This document shows positions 2,372 through 56,899 of a stretch of DNA of 64,000 nt, piece by piece. Made by a program: the position numbers and the translations under genes. The notes below the pieces were generated by a model. The model searched no databases. It saw nothing but the letters and a program-made list of their open reading frames with translations, and had not been told where the DNA came from. The stretch lies in assembly GCA_000091205.1 (NCBI GenBank), contig AP006502.2. One strand, given 5' to 3'. How positions within the stretch are numbered: the stretch's first letter is position 1; each line of letters opens with the position of its first letter. This DNA comes from Cyanidioschyzon merolae (lineage: Eukaryota).

Positions 2372-2535
2372 CGCTCAGTGAAACCCAGTATCTCAACTAT
2401 GCCAGCCGCGTCTTGTTCTCTGCTGGAATGGGACGGATCCGAGCTTGCGCGGCATCAATAGCAACGTGACAGTATGTCCCTGGACCACGGAGGATGGAAT
2501 CGCACCGTCATGCGCCTCATCATTCTTTATAGCCT

Positions 2536-3322
2536 TTAAGCTCAGTTGTGTTCGACCCTTGGATGAGTATAATGAAATGGTATTTCGCTGGTTATAGAAG
2601 ATGCGTTCGAAGAGTGCTAATTTTCAAAACTAAAAAATCGAGGGGAAAGGTAAGGACACGGAAGTCGGGGATCCTGGAGTCCCAGTATCGCCAGGTGCCG
2701 GAAAAGAAACAAAAAATCTTCTTCTCGTCGACAATGGATCCAAGAAGAGCAAGTGACAATGAAGAAGAGGAGGGTAGATAGGCGAGAAAAGGTGCTTGCG
2801 CGGTGGGGCCACGGCGAGATTGTAGTGGCGCCGATGGGTCGTCTTCTAAGAATCAATGCAAAGGTGACTTCAATCAGCTGTAGAGCATTCAAGGAGTTTG
2901 TGAACCGCGACTTCAACACCACCATCAATGTCAGATGGAGCGTGATGCGGAAGTCTCGGTTCATGGACTCCATGATTGGTTGCCTCTGGTTGAAATCATC
3001 AATTCAAGGATTACTAGAACTCGTCTCATCGGCGCCCCTACAATCTCGCCGTGGCCCCACCGCGCAAGCACCTTTTCTCGCCTATCTACCCTCCTCTTCT
3101 TCATTGTCACTTGCTCTTCTTGGATCCATTGTCGACGAGAAGAAGATTTTTTGTTTCTTTTCCGGCACCTGGCGATACTGGGACTCCAGGATCCCCGACT
3201 TCCGTGTCCTTACCTTTCCCCTCGATTTTTTAGTTTTGAAAATTAGCACTCTTCGAACGCATCTTCTATAACCAGCGAAATACCATTTCATTATACTCAT
3301 CCAAGGGTGGAACACCACTGAG
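2536..3322. repeat. Foldback element: two A-family units in tail-to-tail inverted orientation (about 790-bp palindrome)
   Basis: The plus-strand ORF 2548..2781 and minus-strand ORF 3082..3318 encode the identical 77-aa peptide. The outer about 290 bp of each arm are near-perfect reverse complements (for example 'gacaatgaagaagaggagggtagataggcgagaaaaggtgcttgcgcggtggggccacggcgagattgtag' pairs with its reverse complement at about 3045-3118). The inner about 100 bp per arm are about 70% identical. The centre encodes 'FKEFVNRDFNTTINV'. Confidence 0.85.
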
Positions 3323-6300
3323 GTGAGAGACTATAATCTAACTCTCAGTTACCGTGATTGCTCTCATGCCACAAATGGATAGACCTGGAGAAGCCCGTAC
3401 TACAGTTGGACGGCGCACGAATCTACCAACTCAGCACCCGCGCTGTTCCGATTTGTGCTGACGAATTGGGCGGGAAAGATGAAACAGTTTGAGAAAGGAC
3501 GTTCTAGCTCAAATGCCGCAGTGGAGCGCAGAAAACGCTGCGGTTGTTAATAGGGATTCTCTAAATAAGGATGAAGAGTGCAATACGTCTAACGCAAACT
3601 GCTCAGAGCGAGTGAAGAGAACAAAGAAAGCCATTGTGAAACCTCGTCTACCAGTCCGGTGTGCGCTGCTTCAAAGCCCTCCGCGAAAGCGATACAAAAA
3701 TGTTTCAACGCTTTCTTCGATTCAAGTGGCTGGCGCTCTAGGAGCTCCGAGAGTTCCACAAGAAACTCCACTAAAAACGCAACATAGATGTTACAGACTG
3801 AAGCTCGACGCTAAGGATAAAGGCACTCGCCGGCAGAGTCACGGCGATGGCGACGGCTTTAGCCCCGAAAGCTCAGATATCAGGCGCAATGTCCTGCACA
3901 AACCACTCCAACTTTCGAGTGGTCTTGAATGTGACGGCATCAATAGGCAGCGGAGTTCCCCGCCGGACCCTGTGTCCAACACAACCGAGCTCTTGGAACG
4001 GCCAAGTGATGGAGACGTGGTTTGTACTGTTCCTCGTGAGGTTCTGATTCTTTGCAATGAAAAGGACGAATTTTTCCAAGCAATATTCAGATGACTTTGT
4101 TTTTCCCGTCGCCGCTATCTGGAAAGAGTCACTCAGGGCAACCTCTTGCTGGCGGCGGCCCGATTTTTGCGTCACATGATGGGCAACTAGCGAGCCGGTC
4201 AAGAGTTGAATCACAGCAACGATTGCCTGTTATTTAATGAGTGGTACATATAGCCTCAACTGCTTGGTATAACCTTTCCATTGTTTCGGAGAATCAGGTT
4301 CGTTCAACGCAGGCTCGGTTCCGGATAATTTCACAGATCAGAATCGAGCAGATAGCATCATGAATTTTCTTCCACAAAATGACTGGCATTAGGATCATTA
4401 TAACCGACGCAAAACATAAACTCCGTTAATCCTATCTCAAAATCGTAGCAGTGAGTTCCGGAAACCTTGGCTTGAGTACCATTGTTCTGAATGTGCTTTT
4501 TCTCATGGATATGAAACAAACTAAGACGTCCTGTAAATTAGAGAAATGTAGCGGCAAGCCTCTATTCTCTGACTTGTCGCTCACGAGAAAAAATACCTTT
4601 CATGTGTCATTCAGTCATTACTACGTTCAGCAGCTGGATGAATCGCCTTTCTTGCAGCGCTTGTCCTGAACTTCGTGCATCCAAAACAGAATGTCTGAAT
4701 GTTTCTCTATGCGACCGTTTCTCCATGTATCTATTCCACCACAAGCGTTCTCGAGGTGATATCTTCACAAACGTTGCAGGATGTCAGCCTTCGGTAGCAC
4801 TGATACAAGCGATGATGAAGAGGCATGCGTGGGCAAAAATAGAAGAGCCCTGCTATTGGAAACACTCGCAAGTTGTACAAAACATTATTGATTTCGAACT
4901 GAAACGCAAACGGCTTTTGCAGAAAAGTCTGGTGCTCGCCTCACTGGATTAGACATCATCCGGGAAAAACGGTAAACCTATATAAGGAAAATGATAGAGG
5001 GGCGAACAACTGTTCGAAAAGAAGGCAAAAGCGAGCATTAAGAGAAAATCAGCCCCAGCAGAAATGCAATCGTGTTATTGCCCTCTAATCAGCAATCGAA
5101 CTGGATCGTTGGATACCTCACCCAGCGTGGTAACACTCTTCATGATCTGCTCTTCGCACCCTCTTCTGTCATTCTCCGAGACAACTTCGCCGTACATCTT
5201 TGAAAAGCGAGAGGAGAGAACGATACTCAGATTGGCACTGAGCTACTCTTCGTGCCAGGATATACCCCTGGTTCAATGCAGGAGAGGCGTATATTTAAGT
5301 GCCAGACGCGGTCTTAACGGACATGGATCCATGGAAGAATCATTAGCATCCATGTCTTTGTTCGTTGAGAAATCGTTCTCTGCCATCGCAAGCCTTAAAC
5401 TGATATGTTCCTTTTCCTACCGTGTGCGGGAGGGAGCGGAGTGGCGCTTCGGATTGTAACACGTGCTCGCTACGAAGGAAGTGACCAAAATGTACTCGAG
5501 AAATAAAAAGTACATATCCAGGAAAAGTGACCTTCGCACTGATCATCCCCGAAATGCGTCCGATCCGCGAGGAATAGACCTGGTATGGAGTATAGCAATA
5601 GCATGGAAATCGCCATACCCAGCAAGGGGAAAATACGAGGAAAGAGAAGGGGATGCATCAACCAGACAAAGTAGAGAATTGTACCCCGAAACAAGCACAA
5701 ATAACGACAGGACAAAAACTATAGAAGTGGAAAGATCAGTCCAAAATCGCTGCAAAGGCATAAACACTAATATACATGAACAGGAAGAGAATTCCAGAAA
5801 CTGAAATTCGGAGCACCAGTAAGGATCATATAACTTCGTTTTCGAGGAGGGCTCTCATAGCTTTTCTCTTACCGTGGCACAGCTCGTCATGCAAATGCTC
5901 GTGCAAGTTCCGGATGCGCATTGCGAGCTGCCCTCATTCCACACGGATTTTTGGACAAATCCTTCGTTCTTCTACCAGCGTTCGCGACAGAACGTGAAAC
6001 ACGGCCTGATCGCAGTATACAAGATCTGCACGCACGCTTGCGAGAAAACATTTGTACGTCATGAAATCACATCAGCAATCGGAATATCCATGACGAAAGA
6101 GAAAAATATCGAATCAACCTGAAAAATGAAACGATACGCGAGACAATCTCGAGTGCTTCAATCGGTTCACCGTTTGGAAGTTAGAACCGTTTTAACCTAC
6201 CTTACTGGCCTAAAAAAGTGGTGACTGATAGAACGGTTTCTTGGAGTGCCGAAGGAGGCAAATGACAAGCTGATGGTGACAGATGGGATCGAGGTGCCAA

Positions 6301-14877: not shown

Positions 14878-15045
14878 GTAAGTTTCGTGAGCAGCTCGAT
14901 GCTTCTGCATGTGATGATATAAGCTTGAAACCACAGACCTGTAATGAAATGCTGAACGTGATTAGGTAGCAAGCTGTGATGTCTGAGTTTGGAGCAGGTT
15001 CGAATGGAACAGCGGAAACTAACCTCTTTCTTTGTCCGCCTGTAG
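14878..15045 (+). other. Spliceosomal intron (168 nt, GTAAGT...TAG, phase 2) in the ValRS gene
   Basis: Exon 1 ends '...GAT ACA TG' and exon 2 starts 'G TTT TCT TCT GGA CTT TGG CCA TTT'. Together they restore the universally conserved ValRS sequence 'DTW|FSSGLWPFSTMGWP'. The ORF stop in exon 1 is the 'TAA' inside the GTAAGT donor. Confidence 0.8.
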
Positions 15046-16405: not shown

Positions 16406-16759
16406 TGCGTACGGTAAAAAGAAGTGCACGAAGTGCGCTGCTTCTCCCTAAGGCTGGAAGCTGTAGGGAGGCGCGGGACCTGGCCCGCTCCGTCTCAGGT
16501 TTGGGTTCCCGCCACGTCCCCCAGTTAACTGCACTAAAAACGAGCGGTAATACTCGGATGTTATATCGTACAGCATCGACTTCTTCTGCAGCTGCTGCGA
16601 ACGCGAACTAGATACCTACCGGGCAGTTGAATGCGATATTGAAGAGACGTGCGCTCAGTCGGAGCGTCTCAGGCCGGCGCGGCCGTCGCTTCCTTGCGGA
16701 ATATCGCAACGGCGCGCTTGTAGCGTTTTGTTCCTGAGCTGTGTTCTATCCAAAGGCGA

Positions 16760-17300
16760 ACGTTATAAAAAGCGATTTCGCGGTTTATGGCATATGCATT
16801 CAAAGTGCGTTCATTTTCAAAAATAAATAGCCCAAAGAAAAGGGATGGGTATGGGATTCCACGATCCTGGAATCCTTGTGAATATCAGCTGCCAAACAAC
16901 AATAAAAGTCCACTTCTCATCGACCATTGAGCGAAAAAGAGCAAGCGACGAAGAAGAAAAAGGGAAATATGGGCGAGTAAGTGTGTGTGCCCGACGGGAC
17001 GACGACGAGACCGTTGTGGCACAGAGGACACGATTTCGAGGAATCCCTGTATTAATGAGATCGATCGGCCGTGGCGCATTCACGGAGTTCGTGAACCGAG
17101 ACCTCAACGCCGCCAGCAATATTAGAAGATGTACGGTGCTGAAGACGAGACTGGAGAAGCTGCGACGATCCGACTTTGTGGGACAGCCTCTCAGGCTCAA
17201 AACGTCCGAGGAAATTTGAAGCCAAGATCATCCGGTCGGTGGAAACAGGTTAGGAGGCGTCTGTGAGTGAGTACGCATTTACCCGCCATGCACCTAGAAC
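16760..17300 (+). mobile_element. A-family repeat copy carrying a TnpB/Fanzor-like RuvC-III motif relic (degenerate, non-autonomous)
   Basis: ORF 16845..17219 is '...SVCARRDDDETVVAQRTRFRGIPVLMRSIGRGAFTEFVNRDLNAASNIRRCTVLKTRLEKLRRSDFVGQPLRLKTSEEI*'. It is homologous at DNA level to 2536-3322, 38960-39512 and 51825-52360. It begins with a small hairpin 'ggattccacgatcctggaatcc'. Divergence from copy 3 rises upstream of 16850. Confidence 0.55.
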
Positions 17301-17339
17301 CCTTTTGGTTTTACTGATCACATGCCGCGGACGCTTGGT

Positions 17340-18215
17340 CGGAGGCCGAACTGGTCTATGATTAGAATCCAGCGCTGAACTGCTCGTTCTGTCTTTCCAA
17401 TATTTTCCGAACTCTTACGAGGTGTCCAGTGCCAACATACCAAGCGCACCAATAAGCGCCTACGAATTCAAAAGTCCTGGGAGGACTCCCAGTCGTGTGT
17501 GTTCGGAGTGGCCCCTGCGACGCTTCGCCGCTGACATCCATTACTTCACCGGAATCAAGGTTATTCGCAACGCGCTCAGACAACGATTCCTAAAATAGCC
17601 CGTAGCATTGTCCAATGCATACATACAGGCATCCAGTCTTCTCCGTTCCGTTTGTGTCGCACGTTCAATTCAGGCATTCGCCAGGTGTTCGGTCTCTCTT
17701 TTATTGATGCAACTCGTGGGCGCTGCCATTTGCGCTGACTGGATTGACGAAGAGAACAAGTCGACGTCGCCCGATGACCATTCCTTTCCGTGCTCGTCCC
17801 GAAACGCTGCTGAGCTCGTCACTTGCAATCATCGAATCGGTTCAAAGGCGAACCTTCTATGTTTGTTGCAATCGACGAGACGGAGCTCAACAGCAGCGCG
17901 ATACCTCGCACGGGATATGCTCCCAGGGGCGCACATCTCTTCTGCTAGCACGCCAGCGAGTCCTGGACTTTGTCGAACGTCGTCGCAGCGATCTGTCCGA
18001 GCGCAGAGCGCATCAGCGCTTTGTACGAAGTGCGGCTGGGGGATCGGAGTTTCGCAACTCCTGCACCAGCCTGGATTTCGTATACGGAACGTGTTTCATA
18101 ATCGAAATATCGCGTTCCACGGATCCTCGATCGAACGGGACAGTATGCGCGTGCGTATGCAGCTGACGGAGTATTCGCTCAGAAGAGTCGCGCAGATGAA
18201 GCCCGTGAGCGTAGG
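17340..18215 (+). repeat. B-family interspersed repeat, copy 1 (about 0.9 kb), directly abutting the A-family copy
   Basis: About 98% identical to 21480-22355 and 39512-40400. It gives identical ORFs in three places (for example 'MSERVANNLDSGEVMDVSGEASQGPLRTHTTG...' on the minus strand). Confidence 0.85.
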
Positions 18216-19386
18216 GCAAACCTCCGTGGAAAACGCAAATGATCATCGCAGTAAAAGACGCAATTTCACCGCATTGTGAGATCCGAAAATCGCACACATG
18301 CTTCCGTCACTACCATGAGACGCCGCCAGACTACATCTGAGATTGATAAGTCTACAGAGCAGGTGCCAAGAAAGTGCCGAACCAACGAGAAAATCAAAAA
18401 CATATGCGGGTCAATCTCGAGTGCTGCATGAAGCGCATCTCGTGAGCGTTGGATCCGTTGTGTTCTGAGCGCACTTTTCAAGAAAAGTGGGTACTGATAG
18501 AAGGGATTCTAGGCTTACGAGAACACATTAGAGTACTAAGGCTCGTGCGGAAGGTGCTTGGCTGGTTTCCATGGCACTGCGCTGGAGTCGCCAGAGGTTT
18601 TCATTCCATGCAGCCACGAAGCATATATACGTCAACTTCTGGAATGTGTTGGAACACGCAATGGCCAATAATCCGCCTCGTTTTATGGTAGGGTTTGACG
18701 CTGGACGTACTGCAGGGTGCAGCTGCTGCACACTTGCTCTTGTAACGAGAGTGCAAATCCATAGCAGTATTTGGTTCTGTATGATTTTCGTCGTTTCGCT
18801 GAGGACGGCATGGACACATCCCGAGCATGTCCGCGCGCTGAAGCAGCTAAAGAAGATGGGAATGACTAGGAGACAGGTGCAGAAGATGGTATATGGTAAG
18901 CTACCTTAACGTCAGACGGTACGGCAGTCGACGGAAAGAAACGTGCAACCGTGTGAACGTATCTGAAAGTGTACGCGCAAGCACTTTCTGCACCGCGACT
19001 GGAACACTTTGATCAAATTCCGGAAATGTATCGTACTTTAAGAATATTAATCATTTTTGTGGCGAGCAAACCTTCGAGGCCATTATCTCATACTCATTAT
19101 GGGCATGTTGATGAAACGCTAAAGGCTTGCGACGAAACAAAGTCATTACCCAGTAGAGATGGTGTTGGATTCTAGCCAAGGTCAAGCACGCGTATGGTGC
19201 GATATGGTATGACCCAGCGAAACAACAAGTTCGGGTCACCGTATTTATATCTGTATAGTGGGAGCAGTATTCCTGGGCAGCTGGCGAACGAAAATCGTGT
19301 TTCTTCATTCCATATTTCTGGGTACACGGCAAGTTTAGACTGTAGCGGTGTTGGCATGAATGGCAAACGACATCACGCGCTGAGAA

Positions 19387-21387: not shown

Positions 21388-21479
21388 CCTTCTCGGAGCC
21401 TATTTCTCGCAAACGCCAGATGCATACATTGTTTTCAATGGTGTGACACGGTGCGCCGTGTGGGTCTGCGGGGCTCCGG

Positions 21480-22355
21480 CGATCCCCGCCAGATTAGAAT
21501 CCAGCGCTGAACTGCTCGTTCTGTCTTTCCAATATTTTCCGAACTCTTACGAGATGTCCAGTGCCAACATACCAAGCGCACCAATAAGCGCCTACGAATT
21601 CAAAAGTCCTGGGAGGACTCCCAGTCGTGTGTGTTCGGAGTGGCCCCTGCGACGCTTCGCCGCTGACATCCATTACTTCACCGGAATCAAGGTTATTCGC
21701 AACGCGCTCAGACAACGATTCCTAAAATAGCCCGTAGCATTGTCCAATGCATACATACAGGCATCCAGTCTTCTCCGTTCCGTTTGTGTCGCACGTTCAA
21801 TTCAGGCATTCGCCAGGTGTTCGGTCTCTCTTTTATTGATGCAACTCGTGGGCGCTGCCATTTGCGCTGACTGGATTGACGAAGAGAACAAGTCGACGTC
21901 GCCCGATGACGATTCCTTTCCGTGCTCGTCCCGAAACGCTGCTGAGCTCGTCACTTGCAATCATCGAATCGGTTCAAAGGCGAACCTTCTATGTTTGTTG
22001 CAATCGACGAGACGGAGCTCAACAGCAGCGCGATACCTCGCACGGGATATGCTCCCAGGGGCGCACATCTCTTCTGCTAGCACGCCAGCGAGTCCTGGAC
22101 TTTGTCGAACGTCGTCGCAGCGATCTGTCCGAGCGCAGAGCGCATCAGCGCTTTGTACGAAGTGCGGCTGGGGGATCGGAGTTTCGCAACTCCTGCACCA
22201 GCCTGGATTTCGTATACGGAACGTGTTTCATAATCGAAATATCGCGTTCCACGGATCCTCGATCGAACGGGACAGTATGCGCGTGCGTATGCAGCTGACG
22301 GAGTATTCGCTCAGAAGAGTCGCGCAGATGAAGCCCGTGAGCACAGGGTACGGCA
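21480..22355 (+). repeat. B-family interspersed repeat, copy 2 (B only, no A part)
   Basis: Near-identical to 17360-18215. It starts at 'agattagaatccagcgctgaactgctcg'. The left flank is unique sequence, namely the 5' end of the 19387..21387 gene region. Confidence 0.85.
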
Positions 22356-24056
22356 GAAAGCGCAATAACTGAAGATGGCATTGAAGGGATCCTTTTATAT
22401 CTGTGAATGGCATCTACAGAGCGACAAAGAAATCGTGCCCGGGCCACAGGGCAGCGCTTCGAACAAAAGATCTGGTGGACACAGGACATCAGGTGACCAC
22501 AAGGAAGCGTCACAGCTGTAGAGAGCTTACCGAGGCTCCATGCACACAAGACGAACATGACGCAAGAAGCGCAGACCGCAACTTTTGCTCGCGCATCATA
22601 TTTGTCGACAACAGCCAAAAGAGGCAAAGTCCAGACTTTACCGCTGCCGCGTGTATCCTTCGCCCGCTCTCAACGGAACCCAGGATTCAGTAGTGGTCGT
22701 CGTATTCAGCGTTGGAGATGAGCCGGAAAAAGAAATCATTCGCGGCAAATGCCCGCAAAAGCTGGTGTAGATAACAGTGGCAAGAAAAGCAAACATTAAT
22801 GTGTTGGACAAAGTTCGGTAAGCGGACACTTACCATTGTATGCTGCCTACTAGGGTAGATCGAGTTTCCAGATGCAGCTGCGGCGGATTGCGTGGCAAGC
22901 AGCAAAAGCGTTCACAAGGCACTGGACCGGTGCGTTCCGCAGGATTCTCGCTCGCGTATGTAGAGAGGCTCTCGAGCGTTTGCAACGAGCAGAGCGCACA
23001 GGCGGCAGCAAGCTGGGCTGCATCCTCTTTTTTACATTTAGCGCAGGCATTTGAGCGATTTTTTCACTTGAGAAAAAACATTTTTTGCAAATTTTGCCGC
23101 GTGTGAACACGGGCCAGTTGCCTTGTGCTTCGCTTCACGCCGAGGATATGAAGTGAGCGTGAGCTTTCCGGCCGGATGTCAGTCTTACGACAACAAGAAA
23201 AAATGAATTCTTTGATTTTTGAAAACCGATTCTGCAAATGGTTTTCGTCTACTGTTGAGAAGGACTGGAAGCGAACATTCTTAGAAGACTGAATCGCCTA
23301 GGTATACTTTTGGTGCGAATGCTTCGCATTGCTGCCAGTGCTTACAAATATTCAGCATTTACTGGGTATGCTCGAGAGCGCAGCGACTCTGAATGAGTAA
23401 CATGTCTATCGATGATGGTTGAGATTTGCTCCCTATTTGTCCGCAGCCTCTTCATTGATATCGCGATGCAATTTTACATACTGGATCTCGACTAGGTTTT
23501 ATTTGAGAGCGATTCCCTGAAGCCGTAGAGCAGGGCGCCGAAATGAGGTACAGAGCTGCATTCCAAGCCTGTTCATCCAGCACAAAGTGCAATGTGGCGT
23601 TCGCATGCTCTGAAGTGCGGATGTCCCTCCGCTGATGCGCCTTCACTGACCATAGAAAAGCCCCAATCCAGCAGAGTAATACAATAAGATGCCCAAGTGC
23701 AGCGTGTTCAGGAGAACAATGACCGATTCGGCTCGATGACAAGTGACGAAAATACAGCGTCAGGGCGATGGAGACGTGGCGTCGACGTTGCGCGTCTCGA
23801 ATCCACGAAGACAAACCAATACTGCAGGGCTCAAAATGACTTGCCCGAGCACAGTCTTATTTCTCAACCCATATCAAGCTATTCCCAAGCGACTTTGTAT
23901 TTATGAAATCGACCATCACCTGGAGTCCGGACCCTCAACTCCAGCAAGTGCGTCCTTTGATGTTCCGAAAGGCGACGGCTGCTAGTCTCTACTCTTGGGA
24001 AGGCAACTAGGATAGCTCTAACATAAACTTCATGCAATTATAAATACTAGTACCTA

Positions 24057-29966: not shown

Positions 29967-30879
29967 AGCACACGGCTACCTGGGTAGTCACCTGTCCAGT
30001 CGATCGACCAACTAGACAGATAGCTGCCGAAGCTGGCGGCTATCCAGACAAACAGCAACAACGTCAGTCGGCTAACGATGCAGACGGCTTTCGAGGCGGA
30101 CGGAAATCCGAGCGAAACAGAAGTGCAGCACTGAACTATGGGCACTGTTCGAGCCTTTCGAATTTTCCCCCTACTCTTGTTGACATGGTGAGTCGCGCGG
30201 TTCGAAGTATACCAATAGCGGTTTATGGATTTGTCTCAATTTTTAAGATTCTCGGTCATCTTTTCGGAATGGCTGCTTCTACGCCTTGATGGTGGATTTC
30301 GTACCGGCTCCGGAGTCAACGTGGTTCTCATCGCTATCGAACGAAGGATTCGAAAAATAACCGACACCGTCGTCCTATTCATACGAACAAGCGTCCAATC
30401 TTCTCTTTTCTTTACGTGTGGCATGCTCACATAGCACATTCTTAAAAATTTCGATCTTCCGTTCCAAGCCGACTTGTGGACGCAGCAATGCGTGCCGCTG
30501 CATTGATAAGTGAGAAATTTGAAGTCGCCGCTTGAGGACTCGCTCATAAGCTCATGCGGAAAGTTCACTGGACCTGGGGCGTCACATAATAGATCCACTC
30601 GAAACCCAGATCCTCTACTCTCCGTAGCCTACGACGAAACGGGATTCCACACCAGCATGACGCATCTGATAGAGCATGCTCCCAGAGGCTTCAGTCCTTC
30701 TGTCTGCATGGAAAATGGTCTTGAACTCGGATTTGAGTCACTGCAGGGATCGCTCTTAGTGGATATTGGGTTACACCTTGCCAGAAAGGAGCGAAAATGG
30801 ATCAGAATCTCTCGACTTTCTCTCCAAATTGAATTTTTTGTTCGATACTTTTTACATCATGAACAGCAGCGCGTGCCAC

Positions 30880-31180
30880 AACCTATCTAACGAATGGAAC
30901 AGCGTACGCTTGCATTTGCAGAGGACAGAGTACTCGCGAAAGGGATAGCGCTGAAGAAGTCTGTGATCGTTGGGCACGGCACCAGGCTCCGAAACGGAGG
31001 AGGGCATCGAGGGGAGCCCCTGCACCCTCCAAGGACATGTACTGAGCGATGAAGCAGGCGCTCATGCACCACAAGGCAGTGCTCGGAGCGGGGGGGGGGG
31101 GGGTGCAGTAGACTCCTGGGGATCCGCGGCCACAGTCGAGTGTCATCCCCGCGAGGAACGCCCCGAGGCATTATAAAACG
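30880..31180. repeat. B-family 3'-tail fragment (diverged)
   Basis: 'acgaatggaacagcgtacgcttgcatttgcagagg...atgtactgagcgatgaagcaggcgctcatgcacc' is about 75% identical to 55975-56160, to 40300-40500, and to the B core at about 18120. It contains the G14 tract. Confidence 0.5.
31090..31103. repeat. G14 homopolymer tract
   Basis: Direct observation: 'gagcggggggggggggggtgcag'. Confidence 0.9.
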
Positions 31181-31804
31181 CAGACGGGAATGGCAGACGA
31201 AGCAGAAATTGCTGCTTTTGTCTGAGCGCGGAATGCATCGAAAGTGGCCTGATGCAGCAAAACCATGGCTTTAGCGCTAATGTCGATATCTCTGGACTGC
31301 TGTCTTCGGAGCCCGGGAGACAGCAAAAACCGGCGTATTGAAAACGGGAGATAATATAGAGGAAAAGGAAGCAGTCGGAGAAAAATCCCGCAAATAAAAG
31401 TGTTGATGACATAGAGAGAAGATCCAATATTTTGATTGCAAGTTCGAGTTGGGAGACCTGCTTTATGGTATCCACACATGGATGGAACTGGATGTGTCCA
31501 CGGCCGCGAACGACGGCCGCGATACAACGCAGCTCTCGAATAACGCCTCTGATGACTATCTGTGAACCTGCTTGCGAGTAGGCACTGGAGAGGTAGCGCG
31601 TGCTCTAGTTTGAAAACACTTACCACTAAACTTGCAGCATATCTGTGTGTCTGGCTGCAGGCAGGTACTCGAAACGCTGGGCGAGTTTTAGATCGAGCAC
31701 GCACCCTCCTGGGTCCGTCACCTGTTCTTGACACACTTACGTGAAGCCAGAGAATACCCAAGATCGAGAACTGTAGAACGACAGAACGCTTTATTTTTAG
31801 GGAC

Positions 31805-38959: not shown

Positions 38960-40500
38960 AAAGGCAAAAACATGTACGTTCATTCTGAAGAAATGAGAAA
39001 TCCAAGGGAACGTTATGGATATGGGATTCCACGATCCTGGAATCCTTGTGAATATCAGCTGCCAAACAACAATAAAAGTCCACTTCTCATCGACCATTGA
39101 GCGAAAAAGAGCAAGCGACGAAGAAGAAAAAAGGAAATATGGGCGAGTAAGTGTGTGTGCCCGACGGGACGACGACGAGACCGTTGTGGCACAGAGGGCA
39201 CGATTTCGAGGAATTCCTGTATTGATGAGATCGATCGGCCGTGGCGCATTCACGGAGTTCGTGAACCGAGACCTCAACGCCGCCAGCAATATTAGAAGAT
39301 GTACGGTGCTGAAGACGAGACTGGAGAAGCTGCGACGATCCGACTTTGTGGGACAGCCTCTCAGGCTCAAAACGTCCGAGGAAATTCGAAGCCAAGATCA
39401 TCCGGTCGGTGGAAACAGGTTAGGAGGCGTCTGTGAGTGAGTACGCATTTACCCGCCATGCACCTAGAACCCTTTTGGTTTTACTGATCACATGCCGCGG
39501 ACGCTTGGTCGGAGGCCGAACTGGTCTATGATTAGAATCCAGCGCTGAACTGCTCGTTCTGTCTTTCCAATATTTTCCGAACTCTTACGAGGTGTCCAGT
39601 GCCAACATACCAAGCGCACCAATAAGCGCCTACGAATTCAAAAGTCCTGGGAGGACTCCCAGTCGTGTGTGTTCGGAGTGGCCCCTGCGACGCTTCGCCG
39701 CTGACATCCATTACTTCACCGGAATCAAGGTTATTCGCAACGCGCTCAGACAACGATTCCTAAAATAGCCCGTAGCATTGTCCAATGCATACATACAGGC
39801 ATCCAGTCTTCTCCGTTCCGTTTGTGTCGCACGTTCAATTCAGGCATTCGCCAGGTGTTCGGTCTCTCTTTTATTGATGCAACTCGTGGGCGCTGCCATT
39901 TGCGCTGACGGGATTGACGAAGAGAACAAGTCGACGTCGCCCGATGACGATTCCTTTCCGTGCTCGTCCCGAAACGCTGCTGAGCTCGTCACTTGCAATC
40001 ATCGAATCGGTTCAAAGGCGAACCTTCTATGTTTGTTGCAATCGACGAGACGGAGCTCAACAGCAGCGCGATACCTCGCACGGGATATGCTCGCGGGGGC
40101 GCACATCTCTTCTGCTAGCACGCCAGCGAGTCCTGGACTTTGTCGAACGTCGTCGCAGCGATCTGTCCGAGCGCAGAGCGCATCAGCGCTTTGTACGAAG
40201 TGCGGCTGGGGAGATCGGAGTTTCGCAACTCCTGCACCAGCCTGGATTTCGTATACGGAACGTGTTTCATAATCGAAATATCGCGTTCCACGGATCCTCG
40301 ATCGAACGGGACAGTATGCGCGTGCGTATGCAGCTGACGGAGTATTCGCTCAGAATAGTCGCGCAGATGAAGCCCTTGACCACAGGGTACGTTACCGGTC
40401 GCGGAAACCGGAGCGAGCATCCAGCGGAACCTTATGTACCCGTCCAGCTCATGTACTGAGCCATGAAGCGAGCGTTCACGTGCTACAGGCCGGCCTTCGA
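38960..40500 (+). mobile_element. Composite A+B repeat, copy 3 (A-family unit with RuvC-III-like motif followed by B-family unit with the longest 3' tail)
   Basis: 39020-40390 is about 98% identical to 16850-18215, with small indels. Upstream of 39020 the A part is still homologous to copy 1 but much more diverged. The 3' tail 40390-40500 ('...atgtactgagccatgaagcgagcgttcacgtgc') is absent from copies 1 and 2 but present in the diverged B copies. Confidence 0.8.
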
Positions 40501-41074
40501 ACGAGGAGCTGCAGTTGACACATAGGAAAACCTGACCTCGGTCAAGAGTTTCCGTTGGGAAGTGCGCACAGAGGCTATGTTCATGGATTACGACAGTAGC
40601 ACGTAAAATATATATTGCAACTACCGACCATGCACTAGGTGTCTCGAAAACAACCAGAAACTGTGAAATGATGACCTTACCGCTTCCGTCAACTTCCCTC
40701 GACTGCTGAGAACGGAGCTGATGGAACAGAAGAGACCCCCATCTTAAAATATCGAGATAAGAATGAGGCAACGTAGCAGCCGCGGGTAAACACCTCAAAA
40801 GCTGTTGTTGATTACAGCTGGCTGGGACCCACACGTCAGTGTGCATCCCCGTGTAATAGGAATGGGTCTCCTCTATCTTACCCTGACGTTGGTGCAGAGT
40901 GAAGAATGATGTATGCCAAACTTGAAAAGAGCACCATACCCGGAAAACTAATCCACATGCGTCCTTCTCACTCCCGGTCGTAAGCGTGCCAGCGCCAGAC
41001 GGCGAATCGTCTACATTCGGCGTTGCGATGAAGCGCTTCCGTTCCAGCTCTGCAAAGCGTTTTTCCCTTGGAGA

Positions 41075-42709: not shown

Positions 42710-45700
42710 AGCCTATATCGGTTCGTCGGTGATACACAGAGTGCCAGTGCATACACAAATTAGCAAAAGATTTATGGAGTATTTGAAGGACAACTGGATT
42801 CAGTTTGATAGCGCTTTGCGACCGAAAGTGATTTTTCTAATGAACACGGGGATGATTCTGAAAAACGATGAAACTTGCAGTGCTTTGTGAGAATCTTTTT
42901 AGATTTCATGGATATGAGCACGGCCGTCGACAGGGTTTCGTATTCACCTGAGCAAAGCCCCGAATACGGTCACACATATGCAAAGGGAATCCATGTTGCT
43001 CCGGAGGCTGGCACTCTGCATGATGCTGGACGATCTACGTAGAGAATATCGTGTGATTGGTGTACATCCAGGCGAGACACTGGTCGAGCCTTGTGCATGA
43101 ATTCCTCTCGGAAGGCACAGGGCGTGAACGGAACTCAATCGACGTGATTGGCTTAACAGTGGCCCCAGACGTAAACGAGCAGCAGTACACCGTCCAAAGG
43201 ATAAACATGGATTGGCATCGTTGGACGTGTTCTCTACACCCGTTTCAGATTAAAATGGAACGGATCCGATCAATTAGCGCAGTAATAAACTCTAACGCTT
43301 CGGTTTCTTCTGATGGTCATCGACATCAGTCTTTACGGGGGGTTCCTGAGACTGGTTCCATTTTCTCTTGCTTATTCCCGAGTTTGAAAACGCTGGTCTC
43401 ACTTGCTTCCCCAGCTCCGTCGTCAGCAGCGAAAGGACGTTGAATGCAGCCTCAAAGTCCCGAGTTCGCAGCCTTCGACTGCTGTCGAAGCATTTCATGT
43501 CAAGGCGGAAGTTGCGATCCCCAGGTCGCGTGCCATTTTCAGCTTCCTTGTAAACAGCCTCTATGCGCTCTTCGCATCGGTTACACGAGGGTACGGTTGA
43601 TCCATATGTGCACTGCATATGCTTCATCGATGGCCGTCATTTGGCGCGTGAAACTTGCTTCGTGGCCTCATTAATGCCCTCGGCGGGAACAGAGGGCTTC
43701 CCTCCATGCCCTCCTCGGTACCCGCGCCCGATTTCGTAACTCACTACCATAGACTGTTTCAGGTCCATCTACTTAGCGAGTACTCTGTTTGCCGCACGTG
43801 CAGGTGCACGCGGCTCTGTTCGATAGAGAATCACTGAAACGTAAACTAATCAACTATGAGACAATTGCCAGAAGCAAAATCCTAGCTAGAGAACTAGCCA
43901 AGAAATTTCGATCTTTTTACGCTGTGTTTATGCAATGCTGTGATACATTCTCCTGTGGAAGTGATCTTTACGAGGAATCAAGTCCGAGCCAAAGATCCTT
44001 ATCCATGGAAACAGAAAAGACGGGAGCCGCAGTGAGCATAGCCCGTGAGAGGTATACTGCTACAAACGATTGCCGTCTCTTCGATGACCACAAACAGATT
44101 GTGATTTGTTTCTAGTACAGGATCAATTATTTGACGTGACATATTTAGCGAACGTTCGGCATAAGCTAGTGAACAAGTCTTCAAGAGGAGAAGTAGTGTA
44201 CGTTTTCTCGTCAATCCAGCAGCGCAACTTGCTGCACCAACGAATTGCCTTGAAATAGAAAGATCTAAGTGTGAATGGCAACGTGCTTTAAGCATGCTGT
44301 ACATAAGGGGAATAGAATAGTGTATCGCTGCACATATGCAGTGGACAATTGTATCAAACGTTTTACGAATTCTAATTCGACGACGTCGGGAATCGTCTTG
44401 ATTCCGGTCACCTGATGAATTCCAGCTGGAAAGTGTCGATAAAACCGCTCCGGAACTACGAGCTAGGATCCTAAAAATACGTATGAATCTCTATGTACTT
44501 ATTGATGCACTTCAAATATCGAGGCAGTACATCTAAATAACGTTCGAAACAAACGGAAAAGAAGGAGCAGACAGAACTGTTCAATGCTCTATATTAGGCT
44601 CACACCGGGACAGAAGCGAATGCAATATGCAGTTTTGATATTTGCGCTGTCTGTGATCAGCGCAAGCGAGTAGGATACACAAGAAGCGGGAGACGTTTAC
44701 GGCACAGTGCCATCATATACGGCAGGTCCTGAAATCGGGGAACAAAACAGGGTCCCTTTGCGCCTTTCGCATCACGCCTGAATAGTTGTCAAAAGCCCAC
44801 TGGTTGTCCGTGGAAAGAGCTCTTGACGAGCAGGGTCTGCGTTATGCAGGGGCAAAGTGGGGTTATAAGGCTCTTCTTCTGTACGGCGTACTACATTAGG
44901 GGCATTCAGTGGTACCCGCACGCTTCAGGTCGGGGTTCAAAATGCTCTAGCAAAAGTCTCATAGACTCGTACGAAGCTGATGTTTCCCAACCGCGTCGAA
45001 GCCCGTTCCCAACGTGATGGACTCACGGCGCAGAGGAGCACAGATTCCGTATTGCTGTATTTTGGGTTTGTTCAAAACGTGTTCGGGCTTCAGTGCACTT
45101 GCCTTTTGTTTATTCACTGTAAATGACAGGAAGCGCTCTTGTCCAGTCTTCATACGCAGCAGGTGTCGACGGTAGTTGTGCTTCCATATGCGGCAGCGTT
45201 CCCTGTTGCTGTGTCCGACGCGCGTTCCCAGCTGACTACGATCATAGTTGGATTCCATCCAGCGTCAAACAACGAGCAGCATACTACCTTACATCGCTTC
45301 GAACTCGCGTCTGACACCCAACACCTGCACAGCCCGCTCTGCGACGGAACTCTACGCGCCCTCATCCGATAGCGTTGCCCAGCTCCAACGCTGACGTTCC
45401 GCAACGAGCCTCTGCAGGTGCCCGCGGCGTTCAAGCCGGCGCAAGTTCAGCACATTGCCATCAATTACTCGATCCAGGTCCCTGCAAGCCCCTGAACATG
45501 GCCTGGAGCTCATGTTCACCTAAATATCGCCCGTTGCCCTCGGAGAATCATAAGAGATACCAACTTGAGCAGTTGCGGAGCTGTGCGCCTCCAGAGCACC
45601 CATCATCGCTGCACGGTGTGCTGAGGCAACGGCGGCGGCCGCTGCGATTCCCGGATCCCAGCGCATGGCGGCGGAATGCACAGGGCGCGCCTGAAAAACG

Positions 45701-50689: not shown

Positions 50690-51824
50690 GGTATGCATGA
50701 TCATGGAAAGTCATGCATTAGCATCATGAACGAGATACGGCTATGTAGAGGCTCCGCATGGAGCGCAGAAACGTCATCGAAAGGAACCGGCGAGCGTTAC
50801 GAAGCGATGTTTCCTGATTGCGTACGCGCTCATGGGGAGACCCATACCAGACGGACGGAAACCCCGCAGGGAAGGACACGCACACCAATAAACTGCAGTT
50901 CAGCTCTCACAACATGTGTCCCAATATCGATACAGCGCTCGCTGGAGTCCGCAGTCATTTCCTGCACCTGCTGCGTTGCCTATACCAGTAGCTGCTGAAT
51001 GGCCACAAGACCGTGGCGCACAGGTCACAATATCGTCTTCTACCTGAGAAAGCAACTTGCTTGATTGCTTGCTTGCTGGTTGCCTGTGCACATAGACGCA
51101 TGGATAGCCGCCTGCTTGCTTTTACGCACACATGCACACATGCATAGTTGGGAAGATGGATGGATAGGTGCGTTTGGTATCTTCTCTGCGCACCATCGCG
51201 GACATCGACGGCTACCAGGTCGCGATTTGCACCCTGAAGTACGAACGTGCGTTTCAGAGCTACTCCACGCTGCCGTATTCGAGAAATGCCTGCACCCTTG
51301 ACGCTGACGATTGCTTCGCAACAGCTGGTAGCGTTCCAGAACGACAGCCGCACCTGGCGCTTGGTGGAAGCACGCTCAAGGATCCTGGACACGAAGCGGG
51401 TGCGCAAGCTATTGAGCGTCTTGGAACTATTATCGAGAACGAAAAAACATAGAGCACAGGGATCGCCTCCGCTCTGGACGCGCTGAAGAAGGTCAGCACC
51501 GATCCCCGGTTGCACGTCGTTCCGAATCGTATCCTGCGTGTCCTGCTATCGGGGTTCTACGTGGCGGGCGGTGGCTGGCTAGCACACAGCACCATACCCT
51601 GTGGCGACTTGTGAGCTCACCGATATCCGCTCAACTGCGCATGATGCACCAGAACGTAGTTTCGCTCATGGGAACACAGATCGCGTTAACGCTAATCAGG
51701 CTCGCGCCTCAGCCTTCTGCCCTAAGCAAAGCAACGAGCATGTTAGACGTGCTGCGGACCTGGCACGTGCAGGATTCTTGTCATAGCACTTCACCTCAAC
51801 TGTGCTCTAGCGCCAAGTGCGTAT

Positions 51825-52360
51825 CATTTAATGTTTTTTTTCGTGGTTTAGAGCAAATGCTCTCGAAGTGCGTTCATTTACAAATGTAAAAAGGCTAAGG
51901 TATAGAGATGGAAGTCGCGGATCCTAGAGGGCCTCATTGCCGGCTGTCCGAAAACAAGGAAAAAATCCTCTTTTCGCCGTTCATCGAGCAAGGGAAAGCG
52001 CGCGGCGGCGAAGAAAAAGAGGACAGGTAGACGAGAAAAGGTGCTCGCCTGACGGGACGAGGTCGAGACTGTAGTAGAACAGAGGACACAAGTTCGAGGA
52101 ATCCTTGCAATGGTGAGTTCAACCAGAGGCAGGGTACGCATAGAGTTCGCGAACCGAGAGTTTAACGCTGCTATCAACATCGGGAGATGTGCAGTGCTGG
52201 ACAAGAGACCCCCGGAGCTGATACGAGCCGACTTTGTGGGAGAACCTCTCAGGGTCGAATTGTACGGGATGACGTTGCAACCAGTAGTAGGCGGCCGGTC
52301 CAAAAGACGGGAAGGCGTCTGCACGTGAGTGGGTAGACATCCAGTCTACGCTTCTAGGCA
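51825..52360 (+). mobile_element. A-family repeat copy (diverged) with TnpB/Fanzor-like RuvC-III motif relic
   Basis: About 75% DNA identity to 2570-2830 and 16760-17300. It encodes '...DEVETVVEQRTQVRGILAMVSSTRGRVRIEFANREFNAAINIGRCAVLDKRPPELIRADFVGEPLRVEL...' with a stop just upstream, so it is degenerate. Confidence 0.55.
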
Positions 52361-54804: not shown

Positions 54805-55383
54805 GTGTAGTGGATCCCAACACACCTTAGTAGAGATTGCGCATGACTGCCAAAAGGCGCTTTATTGCCTATCTATCGGAGAAAGGTTTCCCATAGAACG
54901 TTCAAGCAATATTTTGGTGCTTGTATCAAGTCGACTTTGAACAAGCATCTGCGCTCTGCACAACGGAGACTTGTGAAAAGGGATTGGTCGAAACTAGCCA
55001 GAATTCTGCAGATTTGCTGCAATCTTCAGCTGCCAAGTCAGTATAAAGAGTAAGTTGCATGAGAGTTCCCTGCTTTGTGAAAGTGATGATCTCGTACAGT
55101 GCAAATATATTTCGAGACTGCGATACGCGATTGTCGTTGGTCATCCAGAGACGCAAACTGCCATGAAACGTCAGACCTCGCCGCTGCACCTATGTCAATT
55201 TAAACTGGGACAATGAACCGCTCGCTCTGTTCCTGCCTTTCGAGTTTTTCAGAACATTTTTCTAGATGCACCATATCGACTTTCAAAGAGTAGCAATTAG
55301 GGCTCACGATTGCATATTTAGTTTTATGATGCTATGTTGTCTTTTCGGAGCGGCTCCTTCGATCTTTTTTTTGCACGTGGAAT

Positions 55384-56290
55384 TTGTTGCGTTTCTGGAC
55401 TCAAGATGATTCGCGACGCGTTCGAACAGCGGTTCGTAAAATACAGATATTATTATTCAGGGCATATATAAGGGTCTCCACTGCTCGTATTTTCTTCCAT
55501 CTAGCATCCGATGGTCGCGGATTCTTCAAGCGTTCGACCTTTCTGTATCAACGCAACTCGTGGGCGCAGGAATTTGCAATTACTAGATTGACAAGGAAAT
55601 AACACTCGACGCTATCCTTTGACGACTGCTTGGGAAGCTGACGCCGAATGTTCGATGAACTCGTCAAGTCAAATAATTTATTGCGTTCGAAAATCGAATC
55701 CTCCTCGCCTTGCGGTCATCGACGAAAGGGGAGTCCAAATCAACGTGATACTTCTAACGGGATGTGCTCAGAGAGGCTCATGCCTCTTCTGTTTGCGTGG
55801 AAAAGGGGTTCGCGGCTCGGCCGAATCATCGCAGGGATGCTTTCCCGATGAGACTGCGTCACTGCTTCCCAAAATGAGCGCATCGACGGATCGTCATCTG
55901 TCGACATGTTTCCTGATCAGGTTTTTTTCTTTCGTTTACTAGTTCCACCATGGGAAACATCACTTTTCGCAAACCCTCTATCGAATGGAACGGCATGCGC
56001 TTGCATGTGCAGCGGAAAGAGTACTCGCCGAGAGAAGTGCCCAGACGAAGCCTTTGGCCGTACGGTACGGGGCCGGGCACGGCAACAGAAGTGGGCATCG
56101 CGCGGAGCCTCCGGCACCTGTCAAGGGCATGTACTGAAAGATGAAGCAAGCATTCATATGCAACCGAGCGACCATTGGACGGTTGGATTCTGTGGACTTA
56201 TGGGAACACCTGATCATACGCGATCGTAACCGTTGCGAATAGGGCACCGAATCTGCATTCAAAGAAGACAAAAATGGCAAGCGAAGCGTA
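55384..56290 (+). repeat. B-family repeat, old diverged copy (about 70% identity)
   Basis: 'ggactcaagatgattcgcgacgcgttcgaacagcggttcgtaaaatacag' aligns with B 'ggaatcaaggttattcgcaacgcgctcagacaacgattcctaaaatagcc'. 'atcaacgcaactcgtgggcgcaggaatttgc' aligns with B 'attgatgcaactcgtgggcgctgccatttgc'. 'tcgaatggaacggcatgcgcttgcatgtgcagcgg' aligns with B 'tcgaacgggacagtatgcgcgtgcgtatgcagctg'. Confidence 0.7.
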
Positions 56291-56899
56291 GATCCCGACT
56301 ACCTCGTGTACATGAAAAGCTCTGCCCACAGTCGGCAGCAGCCAAACCAGGAGTACAATTCTGCCACCAATATCCTTGCATTGCTCAGAACGGAGAGGAA
56401 CTGCCTGGGAACTCCGGCGTATGTAGAGTGTGAGCTAAGAAAGCGATCAAAAGAAGCAGTCTTAGAGATGCCTGCGTAGCCTGGTGTTAATCTCAAAGAA
56501 AGAAGATCCAAAATGCAGTGCGTTCGATTGTATTAAAGGACCTTTCCCATTTTTCTGACATGTGTGCATCAGTAGCGAAAGAAGAGACTTCTAGAAACCA
56601 AGCCGCTTTTGATGGCGATAGCAGGTCTTTCATTTGCCGTCGCAGGCAGCTATACGATAAGTCGGATCGTTGTTCTTATCGGAAACGGCCTGAAACTTTT
56701 TCATGCTGGTGCAAGCGACTGAGTTTTGTCGTTATCGGTCAGAAGCAAGCACCAAAGGAAACTACAGCTGAGACCCGCTCCCCAAGCTACGTCTTGGTTT
56801 CGAGAGAGTTTGTCCGGCGTCATCTCGAGATCGAAACCGCTTAGCCAAGGTGTCCGGGGTGCTCCAAGTTGACCACTCGGCACTATAGGTGATTGACAG

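Follow-up and report, generated by a model that had tools for sequence, protein, structure and literature searches.

Near-identical segments shared by three repeat loci in a 64,000-nt stretch of Cyanidioschyzon merolae DNA (the window) are probably ectopic (interlocus) gene conversion tracts among three old, independently inserted repeat copies, a reading to which we give a probability of roughly 0.8. The loci, called here c1, c2 and c3, all fall within 23 kb of one strand. The 99% identical blocks that they carry are not new insertions: identity collapses in register at both edges. Gene conversion between copies of one repeat family, A, had been suggested in a preliminary description of this DNA, and our analysis supports that suggestion and extends it to a second family, B, given the in-register 5' ~860 bp at c2 and c3.

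The window is part of chromosome 20 of C. merolae 10D. Self-BLAST of the window aligns 16845-18208 with 39015-40379 at 99.05% identity (1365 bp, 13 differences), 17360-18210 with 21492-22342 at 99.77% over 851 bp, and 21492-22352 with 39530-40391 at 99.07% over 862 bp. The main pair, described earlier as about 98% identical (16850-18215 and 39020-40390), is therefore real, and so is the third copy described as equally young and consisting of B without A, since 21492-22352 shares ~860 bp with the others at 99.1-99.8%. About 8 of the 13 differences between c1 and c2 are private to c2 and lie inside the B part, c3 differs from c1 at 2 positions in 851 bp, and fixed-site differences separate the block copies. 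The A/B junction is at 17360/17361 in c1, and the junction string ggaggccgaactggtctatgattagaatcc recurs at both composites, c1 and c2. On the right, the three blocks end within ~10 nt of a common point, and the left end of B is sharp at c3. The distances to neighboring genes are also as first described (less than 400 bp from the ValRS stop to the first composite, less than 1 kb from the start of the HCF173-like gene to the second), the ValRS ORF ending at 16405 and the NmrA/CIA30 (HCF173-like) ORF starting at 38014 on the minus strand. CMT277C, which lies between c1 and c3 in 18217-21491, was recognized through a homology search.

Table 1. Coordinates of the repeat features in the window, with strand and the basis or content of each.
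Feature	Position	Strand	Content or basis
c1 block copy	16845..18216	+	From the mini-Fanzor start codon through the A/B junction to ~862 of the B family model
c2 block copy	39015..40391	+	Content as in the c1 block
c3 block copy	21492..22352	+	B part alone
Unconverted old 5' part of resident A, c1	16720..16844	+	CMe-1A ~786-905, on the 5' side of the Fanzor1 start codon
Unconverted old 5' stub of 5'-truncated A, c2	38963..39014	+	34/53 identical to c1
Old unconverted 3' extension of resident B, c3	22353..22878	+	Family alignment, B profile
Old unconverted 3' extension of resident B, c2	40392..40912	+	264/445 identical to the c3 extension
B copy, c1	17359..18218	+	Truncated at model position 862 of ~1385
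B3, old full-length B	30123..31474	+	Profile match
B5, old full-length B	43220..44600	-	Profile match; missed in the preliminary description
B6, old full-length B	55196..56568	+	Profile match
Mini-Fanzor ORF, c1	16845..17219	+	124 aa; tblastn with CMe-1p, E = 5e-12
Mini-Fanzor ORF, c2	39015..39440	+	141 aa
A 3' untranslated tail, c1	17220..17360	+	Ends at the A/B junction
A3, old A copy	51783..52348	+	Closest to CMe-1A: 78.6% over positions 2835-3109
A4, arm of inverted pair	2527..2877	+	Tract 2555-2825
A5, arm of inverted pair	2986..3336	-	Tract partner 3038-3308

What lies just outside the blocks? To the left of c1 there are ~125 nt of A-family sequence, 68% identical to the CMe-1A consensus, with a score that was matched by 0 of 500 shuffles. 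The corresponding stub at c2 (40-50 nt) is marginal by score (1/500 shuffles), yet it keeps colinearity, and its end coincides exactly with the break. Identity between the two loci is 64% in the A-family sequence just before the break, and the sharp upstream drop noted in the preliminary description is confirmed by 13 differences in 1365 positions inside the left edge versus 19 in 53 outside it (Fisher p = 5e-21). The block starts inside resident A copies at c1 and c2, and not at an A-family terminus. On the right, c2 and c3 match at 99.1% over 862 bp and then at 59% (264/445; z = 35.6 versus shuffles) across the next ~450 bp, a contrast between block and extension with a Fisher p of 9e-86. 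In the family alignment these extensions of ~520 bp are 53% identical, and any pair of old copies is 53-61% identical. The B profile matches c2 (39529-40912) and c3 (21490-22878) each in a single uninterrupted alignment from model position 2 to 1390, and therefore the block stands, in register, in place of the old 5' part. No displaced old B 5' half is found upstream of the block at c2 or c3. At c1, at most ~20 nt of B-like stub are present past the truncation. The unique flanks that were compared are unrelated (z = 0.6 for the right flanks of c1 and c2, and likewise for left flanks), all flank comparisons except those of the B extensions give z <= 2.1, and no target-site duplications were seen at the blocks. 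The pattern by which we recognize conversion, low-identity homology continuing in register, is present at the right edge in c2/c3, at the left edge in c1/c2, and at both edges in a further pair, A4/A5; the remaining block edges fall where shared homology ends.

That further pair holds a second, independent conversion tract, in inverted A copies at 2.5-3.3 kb. Positions 2555-2825 of A4 and 3038-3308 of A5 are 100% identical over 271 bp, and the homologous flanks are 72% (23/32) and 69% (74/108) identical (tract versus flanks, p = 5e-23). The tract starts ~100 nt upstream of the ATG-equivalent position.

Close strains represented in metagenomes provide a population view of the same loci. At site 16924, which is 75 nt from the last locus-specific base, all four combinations of locus and allele occur across 10D and eight locus-anchored contigs, and sites 17028 and 17045 likewise show four combinations, with less safe phasing. 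The polymorphism that c1 and c2 share across environmental strains, with one safely phased site, is held with moderate confidence. In-block variants more than ~150 nt from a unique flank were not relied on, since phasing over that distance is beyond short-read assemblies. No pre-conversion allele was found, and all sampled strains (~99.4% identical) already carry the blocks. The 30-mer at the left end of the block occurs in metagenome contigs of close strains in the A/B and c3 contexts only, with no other insertion sites, in a census that covers a few metagenomes and not the complete 10D genome.

By its similarity to the published Fanzor1 element CMe-1A, family A is an internally deleted copy of that element. 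What it retains is the upstream region with start codon and N-terminus, joined to the RuvC-III part of the C-terminus and to the 3' end. Nucleotide identity to CMe-1A is 65-79% over positions 786-1070 and 2833-3109, including regions outside the ORF; every A copy matches 786-969 and 2833-3109 at 65-79%, and in every copy ~1.76 kb (1070-2833) is deleted. The c1 ORF joins ~57 aa of the Fanzor1 N-terminus in frame to the C-terminal RuvC-III region (EFVNRDLNAASNIRRC) and has lost RuvC-I, RuvC-II and the zinc finger, and the c2 ORF extends to ...HPVGGNRLGGVCE because it has CGA where c1 has TGA (17217). In tblastn with CMe-1p, c1 matches at 42% over aa 634-708 (E = 5e-12), c2 at 41% and A3 at 64%, and the RD (RuvC-III) motif EFVNRDLNAASNIRRC of A matches EFVNRDFNAAINIRRC of CMe-1p. 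The complete catalytic core (D ... [TS][TS]xx-C4 zinc finger ... RD) is not present in A, where only the RD part remains. Lacking ~1.76 kb of ORF, A cannot encode a nuclease and is not a Fanzor gene but a non-autonomous deletion derivative. The c1 tail runs 96 nt past GGAGGCGTCTG and that of CMe-1A runs 86 nt; this match in length would place the Fanzor right end at most ~10 nt from the first base of B. The A tail folds no better than shuffled sequence (z = 0.58), and no Rfam match was obtained in the window.

A resembles CMe-1A (Bao & Jurka 2013, PMC3627910) in an ORF whose N- and C-termini match those of Fanzor1, RD...NAA.NI motif included, in being devoid of terminal inverted repeats, and in having a neighboring non-autonomous repeat (B beside A; TE-N2_CMe in the CMe-1A consensus). 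It differs from CMe-1A in having no TE-N2_CMe part (consensus positions 1-635) and, at c1 and c2, in being just 65-68% identical to the consensus. Intact copies of CMe-1A have been reported (PMC3627910). We also considered whether c1 might be a full-length old Fanzor with an overwritten middle, a relic at 18550-19089 representing its 3' part; this was rejected, as 18200-18560 contains no colinear continuation of the c1 A and the relic is far more diverged than the c1 A flank.

Family B is a non-coding, unclassified dispersed repeat of ~1.39 kb, present in six copies in the window. The preliminary description had taken the unit to be ~0.87 kb, a length that the profile matches revise upward, and its census lacked the minus-strand copy at 43220-44600. 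It had also listed 55384-56290 and 30880-31180 as old B pieces; they are indeed old, and are parts of the full-length copies at 55196-56568 and 30123-31474. B has no blastn or tblastn match to CMe-1A or CMe-1p and no nhmmer match at E <= 10, and the idea that it belongs to CMe-1A or TE-N2_CMe was rejected for want of similarity. A decayed Tc1/mariner-IS630 (DDE_3) transposase, suggested by 'VFGVAPATLRR' and 'FVAIDETELN...GYAPRG', was likewise rejected: a search for a transposase signature gave no Pfam match and no protein homologues, and the old B copies show no codon periodicity (3.08/3.09/3.03). No terminal inverted repeats, target-site duplications or hairpins were seen at the ends of B, which are too eroded to call. 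No older conversion patch among the other B copies is significant, and exchange is therefore not general in the family.

Could A+B be a single element with a variable 5' end? This alternative, raised in the preliminary description, fails because A occurs three times without B and B four times without A in the window; the idea that A remnants persist beside the other B copies was also rejected. In two sister genera, Cyanidiococcus and a third relative, the syntenic loci contain neither family, and the copies of these separate families are therefore independent old insertions into a conserved gene order. On this comparison, A and B are genuine lineage-specific insertions.

How, then, might the three loci have become so alike? 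At c1, a Fanzor1 element with an internal deletion (A) borders on a B truncated at ~862; at c2, a 5'-truncated A borders on a full B; and c3 has a full B and no A. Homology-directed repair probably copied sequence between them, in tracts reaching almost to the limits of the homology shared by the partners. On the left, these limits would be the left end of B at c3, where there is no A, and at c2 a point ~50 nt short of the truncated end of A; on the right, the limit for all three blocks would be the point at which the c1 B is truncated. Tracts that run to the limits of homology would explain why all blocks stop at the same place. After a first exchange the copies would have been ~99% alike, and exchange probably continued (concerted evolution). 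The data show in-register replacement with old homologous sequence beyond the tract, a second independent tract, and one phaseable polymorphism common to two loci; which way sequence moved, what lesion began the exchange and which repair sub-pathway served it we infer: c1 was likely the donor or the bottleneck, and breaks in the repeats would need to be repaired from a template, classical nonhomologous end joining (C-NHEJ) being reported as absent in C. merolae (PMC6635534).

What weighs against conversion is that the unconverted flanks are just 53-70% identical. Rad51-dependent recombination normally tolerates far less divergence than this. The first exchange would therefore require an unusual event, such as a homeologous or microhomology-assisted step. 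The c3 tract starts at the first base of B and c1 is nearly without homology on the right, so that at least one junction per event would have had little or nothing to anneal to. It also counts against conversion that the other B copies show no older partial tracts and that no sampled strain has a pre-conversion state.

Our best reading is that the conversion is an event of a known kind, represented here by local ectopic exchange in an NHEJ-less genome. It is reminiscent of ectopic conversion in yeast Ty elements, LTR pairs (PMC7251063) and palindrome arms, in which there is also a near-identical tract within diverged homology, in register, with unduplicated unique flanks, partners close together on one chromosome, and polymorphism shared between paralogues. 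Unlike in those systems, the flanking homology is unusually low (53-70%), the tracts come near the limits of shared homology, and the host has no classical NHEJ. Template-switching gap repair, as in P-element and Ac/Ds-type chimeras, offers another parallel, since an internal part comes from another copy and the terminal parts are resident. However, neither A nor B is known to have a transposase, terminal inverted repeats or excision footprints, and what stayed resident here is not short termini but 520 bp of 3' sequence.

Among the alternatives, recent transposition would have a young unit, either B or A(3')+B, insert at three sites, perhaps with a preference for resident A or B. The three copies are 99-99.8% identical, versus ~58% for old B copies, they share a right end, B begins sharply at c3, and both families are genuine lineage-specific insertions. 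However, the common right end falls within the 1.39 kb unit, with old B continuing in register at c2 and c3, and the left end of the composite is inside an A element instead of at a family terminus. An insertion should also have left the old 5' half upstream, where there is none. There are no terminal inverted repeats, target-site duplications or terminal hairpins, B is without coding capacity, and the left end of the block appears in no additional metagenome context. We consider recent transposition improbable, the old extensions that continue in register having largely refuted it. With block ends internal to the family unit, the two or more bursts of B activity proposed in the preliminary description are not supported; nor is its nested or preferential insertion of A(3')+B, for which there is no displaced 5' half, no target-site duplication, and, in the metagenomes, only two contexts of the left end of the block.

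A more elaborate, and very improbable, alternative is homing-like conversion triggered by a Fanzor-guided break. The 3' transcript of A (omega RNA) would continue for 14-15 nt beyond the right end, into the first bases of B, Fanzor1 supplied in trans from an intact CMe-1A would cut matching B left ends, and repair would proceed from an A+B copy. Fanzor1 guides derive from the 14-15 nt flanking the element end (PMC13565253), and intact CMe-1A copies, as reported (PMC3627910), could provide the enzyme in a host where C-NHEJ is absent. A retains the Fanzor1 3' region and tail, with a predicted right end within ~10 nt of B, and the c3 tract starts at the first base of B with sequence identical to that following A in c1 and c2. 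However, the putative c3 target is preceded on its 5' side by GCCA, not by an AT-rich TAM, and if the TAM were ATTA within GATTAG, the donors c1 and c2 would be cut too. A guided break leaves unexplained both the start of the c1/c2 tract at the A start codon and the A4/A5 tract, the A 3' region, as noted above, folds no better than shuffled sequence and has no Rfam match, the position of the A right end is imprecise, and restorative homing has not been demonstrated for any Fanzor. The likeness to TnpB/IscB restorative homing lies in homology-directed copying beside the right end of a TnpB-family element, with a guide that would come from the flank of that end; the differences are that there is no intact nuclease gene and no suitable TAM here, and that the copied segment is both outside and inside the Fanzor element. 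If true, no natural footprint of Fanzor-driven homing-like conversion would have been seen in a eukaryotic genome before this one.

RNA-mediated conversion, in which a transcript from the mini-Fanzor ATG to ~18216 is reverse-transcribed and the cDNA recombines with homeologous copies, would account for the left edge of c1 and c2 at the ORF start, with promoter-side sequence unshared, and for the common right end. There is no poly(A) remnant, the upstream start of the A4/A5 tract indicates that the coincidence with the ATG is not general, and the common right end is already explained by the truncation of the c1 B; a cDNA intermediate is thus a remote prospect.

Segmental duplication, or an assembly artefact, is hardly credible: near-identity over 0.9-1.4 kb and two metagenome contigs that collapse c1 onto c3 could point that way, but unrelated unique flanks refute the duplication put forward as an alternative in the preliminary description, c1, c2 and c3 each lie in ancestral synteny, the copies can be told apart at fixed sites, and of the six block/flank junctions five are found again on independent contigs from metagenomes of close strains, one contig spanning 18097-21682, so that the repeats are not an assembly artefact.

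Under ectopic conversion, the reading that we prefer, near-identity of repeats in C. merolae cannot be taken as a sign of recent transposition, since 60%-diverged relics can acquire a young appearance through conversion. Such a correction of age would bear on estimates of transposable element activity in this alga, those for the Fanzor1 family included. The two tracts would be clean natural examples of conversion with flanks just ~55-70% identical, in a free-living eukaryote reported to be without classical NHEJ, and could be useful for understanding repair-pathway choice and off-target template use in C. merolae gene targeting. The analysis also documents two repeat families, a 'mini-Fanzor' that is non-autonomous and a 1.39 kb repeat, unclassified, that is present in six intergenic regions of these 64 kb.

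The collapse of c1 onto c3 in two metagenome contigs shows that assemblers confuse these copies. A 4,132-bp 'deletion' in contig L004 was not accepted as proof of c1-c3 recombination: another contig of that metagenome, L006, reads through the interval, and one 30-kb contig follows a strain-chimeric path, which makes repeat connectivity in these assemblies unreliable. Contig L014 contains the same join as L004, and given this join a real c1-c3 deletion allele is possible.

How did a near-identical sequence block come to occupy three loci with strongly diverged surroundings? Self-comparison of the window confirmed the near-identical A+B pair claimed in the preliminary description, at loci c1 and c2 (16845-18208 versus 39015-40379; 99.05% identity, 1365 bp), and the equally young-looking B-only copy at c3, which carries the distal part of the block (17360-18210 versus 21492-22342, 99.77% over 851 bp with c1; 21492-22352 versus 39530-40391, 99.07% over 862 bp with c2). 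The A/B junction string quoted there was found at c1 and c2, and the sharp drop in identity upstream of the composites was also borne out, only 34/53 positions being identical 5' of 16845/39015. Despite this, A-family sequence is present on both sides of the comparison: the solid case is c1, with 125 nt at 68% to the published CMe-1A consensus (0/500 shuffles), and c2 has a colinear stub of 40-50 nt that stops at the break (1/500 shuffles). In c2 and c3 the block makes up just the initial ~860 bp of a resident B element, which runs on in register and uninterrupted, each giving a single match to the B profile HMM over model positions 2-1390. Beyond the block c2 and c3 are homologous (264/445 identical, z = 35.6), and in the B family alignment these extensions, at 53% identity, are no closer than any old pair; differences number 8/862 inside the block versus 181/445 outside (p = 9e-86). 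No displaced old 5' half of B was found upstream of the block at c2 or c3, and the c1 B copy ends ~20 nt past it. None of the 99% blocks is a complete element. At either edge identity drops steeply, inside homologous sequence wherever the homology carries on, which makes the block a replacement and not an insertion.

The gene-conversion alternative raised for the A copies is therefore right and extends to B, where the old extensions continue in register past the block. Every tract extends nearly to the limit of homology common to its partners: on the left, to the first base of B at c3 and to ~50 nt from the truncated A end at c2; on the right, for all three, to the c1 truncation point, which accounts for their common right end. 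These limits also suggest, as an inference on direction, c1 as donor to c3 (2 differences/851 bp) and as donor or recipient with c2 (~1% divergence). A second, textbook conversion tract, absent from the preliminary description, lies in an inverted pair of A copies, A4 (2527-2877, +) and A5 (2986-3336, -), 108 nt apart: 271 bp are 100% identical (2555-2825 and the reverse complement of 3308-3038), flanked on both sides by homologous A sequence at 69-72% identity (23/32 and 74/108; p = 5e-23). Since its boundaries differ from those at c1/c2, it is probably of no significance that the c1/c2 edge falls on the ATG of the A open reading frame.

Exchange between c1 and c2 appears to have been repeated, because polymorphism is common to both paralogues: at site 16924, 75 nt from the last locus-specific base, both states occur at both loci in contigs anchored by ValRS (c1) or the NmrA/CIA30 gene (c2). 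Sites 17028 and 17045 show the same pattern and lie past the safe short-read phasing range. Nine variants of the A reading frame occur in public assemblies. At 17509-17534 and its c2/c3 equivalents there are four differences in 26 bp, all three 10D copies having T, A, T, A and metagenome strain versions C, G, C, G or C, G, T, A; such clustering points to the copying of a short stretch from a different source and not to independent point mutations. C. merolae is reported to lack classical NHEJ (PMC6635534), so that broken repeats must rely on template-directed repair or on microhomology. The process, interlocus gene conversion with concerted evolution of transposon relics, is known; the present case adds a well-documented example, in which the partners are an unclassified repeat and an internally deleted form of a known Fanzor1 element.

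Conversion has its difficulties. Identity in the unconverted flanks is just 53-70%, a very low level for homologous recombination, and past some tract ends there is scarcely any homology or none. The first exchange must therefore have relied on an unusual step, homeologous or assisted by microhomology; once copies were 99% identical, further exchange would be easy. No pre-conversion allele was found, nor were older tracts detectable among other B copies. In two metagenome contigs of close strains from different samples (L004 9787-11250 and L014 3001-4469) the c1 block is joined straight to the c3 extension (window 16845-18210 to 21492 onward), skipping 4,132 bp in which the conserved gene CMT277C lies. 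Another contig from the L004 sample spans the skipped interval, and one contig of 30 kb can be shown to follow a strain-chimeric path, so in these joins the assembler has probably collapsed the 99.8% repeat; a real deletion allele, from recombination between direct repeats, is possible.

Could Fanzor activity itself have started the conversion? An A guide RNA reading into the first bases of B might direct a trans-acting Fanzor1 to cut B left ends, which fits the known guide architecture (PMC13565253) and the start of the c3 tract at the first base of B. We consider this very improbable: an AT-rich TAM is absent at c3, donors would also be cut were ATTA the TAM, the A tail has no structural signal, and the c1/c2 and A4/A5 tracts are left unexplained. 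Nothing specific speaks for an RNA-mediated route. Transposition in a burst, or by nested insertion, fails on the old extensions in register, the internal block ends and the metagenome census, in which the left-end 30-mer of the block had five matches in JGI contigs, in A/B and c3 contexts only, with no sign of further insertion sites; neither the "bursts" of B activity nor the "preferential insertion" of an A(3')+B unit is supported. Segmental duplication or misassembly fails given unrelated flanks, conserved synteny and independently confirmed junctions.

Repeat-derived features of the window
Feature	Position	Strand	Remarks
Mini-Fanzor ORF, c1	16845-17219	+	124 aa
Mini-Fanzor ORF, c2	39015-39440	+	141 aa
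Further A copy (A3)	51783-52348		
Further A copies, inverted pair (A4/A5)	2527-2877 / 3336-2986		
Decayed Fanzor1 pseudogene	18550-19089	+	CMe-1p aa 521-702, 27% identity
Fanzor1 pseudogene fragment	6739-7589	+	CMe-1p aa 314-414 + 509-624, 29-34% identity, stops present
TE-N2_CMe fragment	52580-52800	-	CMe-1A consensus 84-298, 71%
TE-N2_CMe fragment	47267-47366	+	CMe-1A consensus 20-121, 68%
B copy, c1	17359-18218		truncated at model position 862
B copy, c3	21490-22878		
B copy	30123-31474		
B copy, c2	39529-40912		
B copy	44600-43220	-	full length, old (~58% identity)
B copy	55196-56568		

CMe-1A is a 3169-bp Fanzor1-bearing element of C. merolae, with ~150 copies, no TIRs or TSDs and no known class (Bao & Jurka, PMC3627910); its consensus and 734-aa protein (CMe-1p) were taken from the supplementary files of that paper. 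Every A copy matches CMe-1A 786-1070, which takes in upstream sequence with the ATG (position 906) and ~55 codons; fused to it is 2833-3109, with the RuvC-III motif among the final ~90 codons, followed by the 3' tail. A is thus a "mini-Fanzor", a non-autonomous derivative from which an in-frame internal deletion of 1.76 kb has removed RuvC-I, RuvC-II and the zinc finger. Its ORF, whose ATG begins the 99% block, is open at both c1 and c2, and TGA at 17217 (c1) versus CGA (c2) accounts for the different lengths. Judging from tail length, the A right end probably lies at most ~10 nt from the A/B junction at 17360/17361. Metagenomes hold a second family of similar short ORFs (45-52% identity, 76-124 aa, 14 variants, one on 25 contigs). 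The pseudogene just downstream of c1, with in-frame stops and an RD-motif remnant (FLHRDWNTLIKFRKC), is far older than the A copies and not colinear with the c1 A; the other Fanzor1 fragment adjoins a ~99-bp tandem repeat (6378-6675, ~3 copies, 85-90% identity). TE-N2_CMe, a separate element, makes up the 5' 635 bp of the CMe-1A consensus, and its minus-strand fragment directly follows A3 in opposite orientation.

B is a ~1.39 kb unit with exactly six copies in the window by sensitive BLASTN and profile HMM, in six intergenic regions within 64 kb; the minus-strand copy was missing from the preliminary list. Old copies are 53-61% identical in every pairwise comparison. Searches found no similarity to CMe-1A, no protein homologues or Pfam domains, no codon periodicity and no Rfam match, and no TIRs or TSDs were callable at its eroded ends. 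On these comparisons B is an unclassified, non-coding dispersed repeat; an early impression of a Tc1/IS630-like transposase was rejected for lack of homologues, Pfam domains or codon periodicity. No A remnants adjoin B copies other than c1/c2; A and B thus form two distinct families, which happen to lie side by side at those loci.

CYME_CMT277C, between c1 and c3, matched at 100% identity (C. merolae 10D, chromosome 20), and the same region occurs on hot-spring metagenome contigs at ~99.4%. The gene order TopoVI-B, hydrolase, ValRS, Rxt3-like, MnmA, His-phosphatase, IleRS, NmrA/CIA30 is kept in Cyanidiococcus yangmingshanensis and a third relative, and no A-, B- or Fanzor-like sequence was found at their syntenic loci, which marks A and B as lineage-specific insertions within an ancestral arrangement of genes. 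Window genes are almost intron-free, with a PGRL1-like ORF at the right end (62887-63990, +). ValRS is the only apparent split gene (ORFs 13202-14881 and 15032-16405), being called as two ORFs in all strains' contigs and the third relative but a single 1002-aa gene in Cyanidiococcus.
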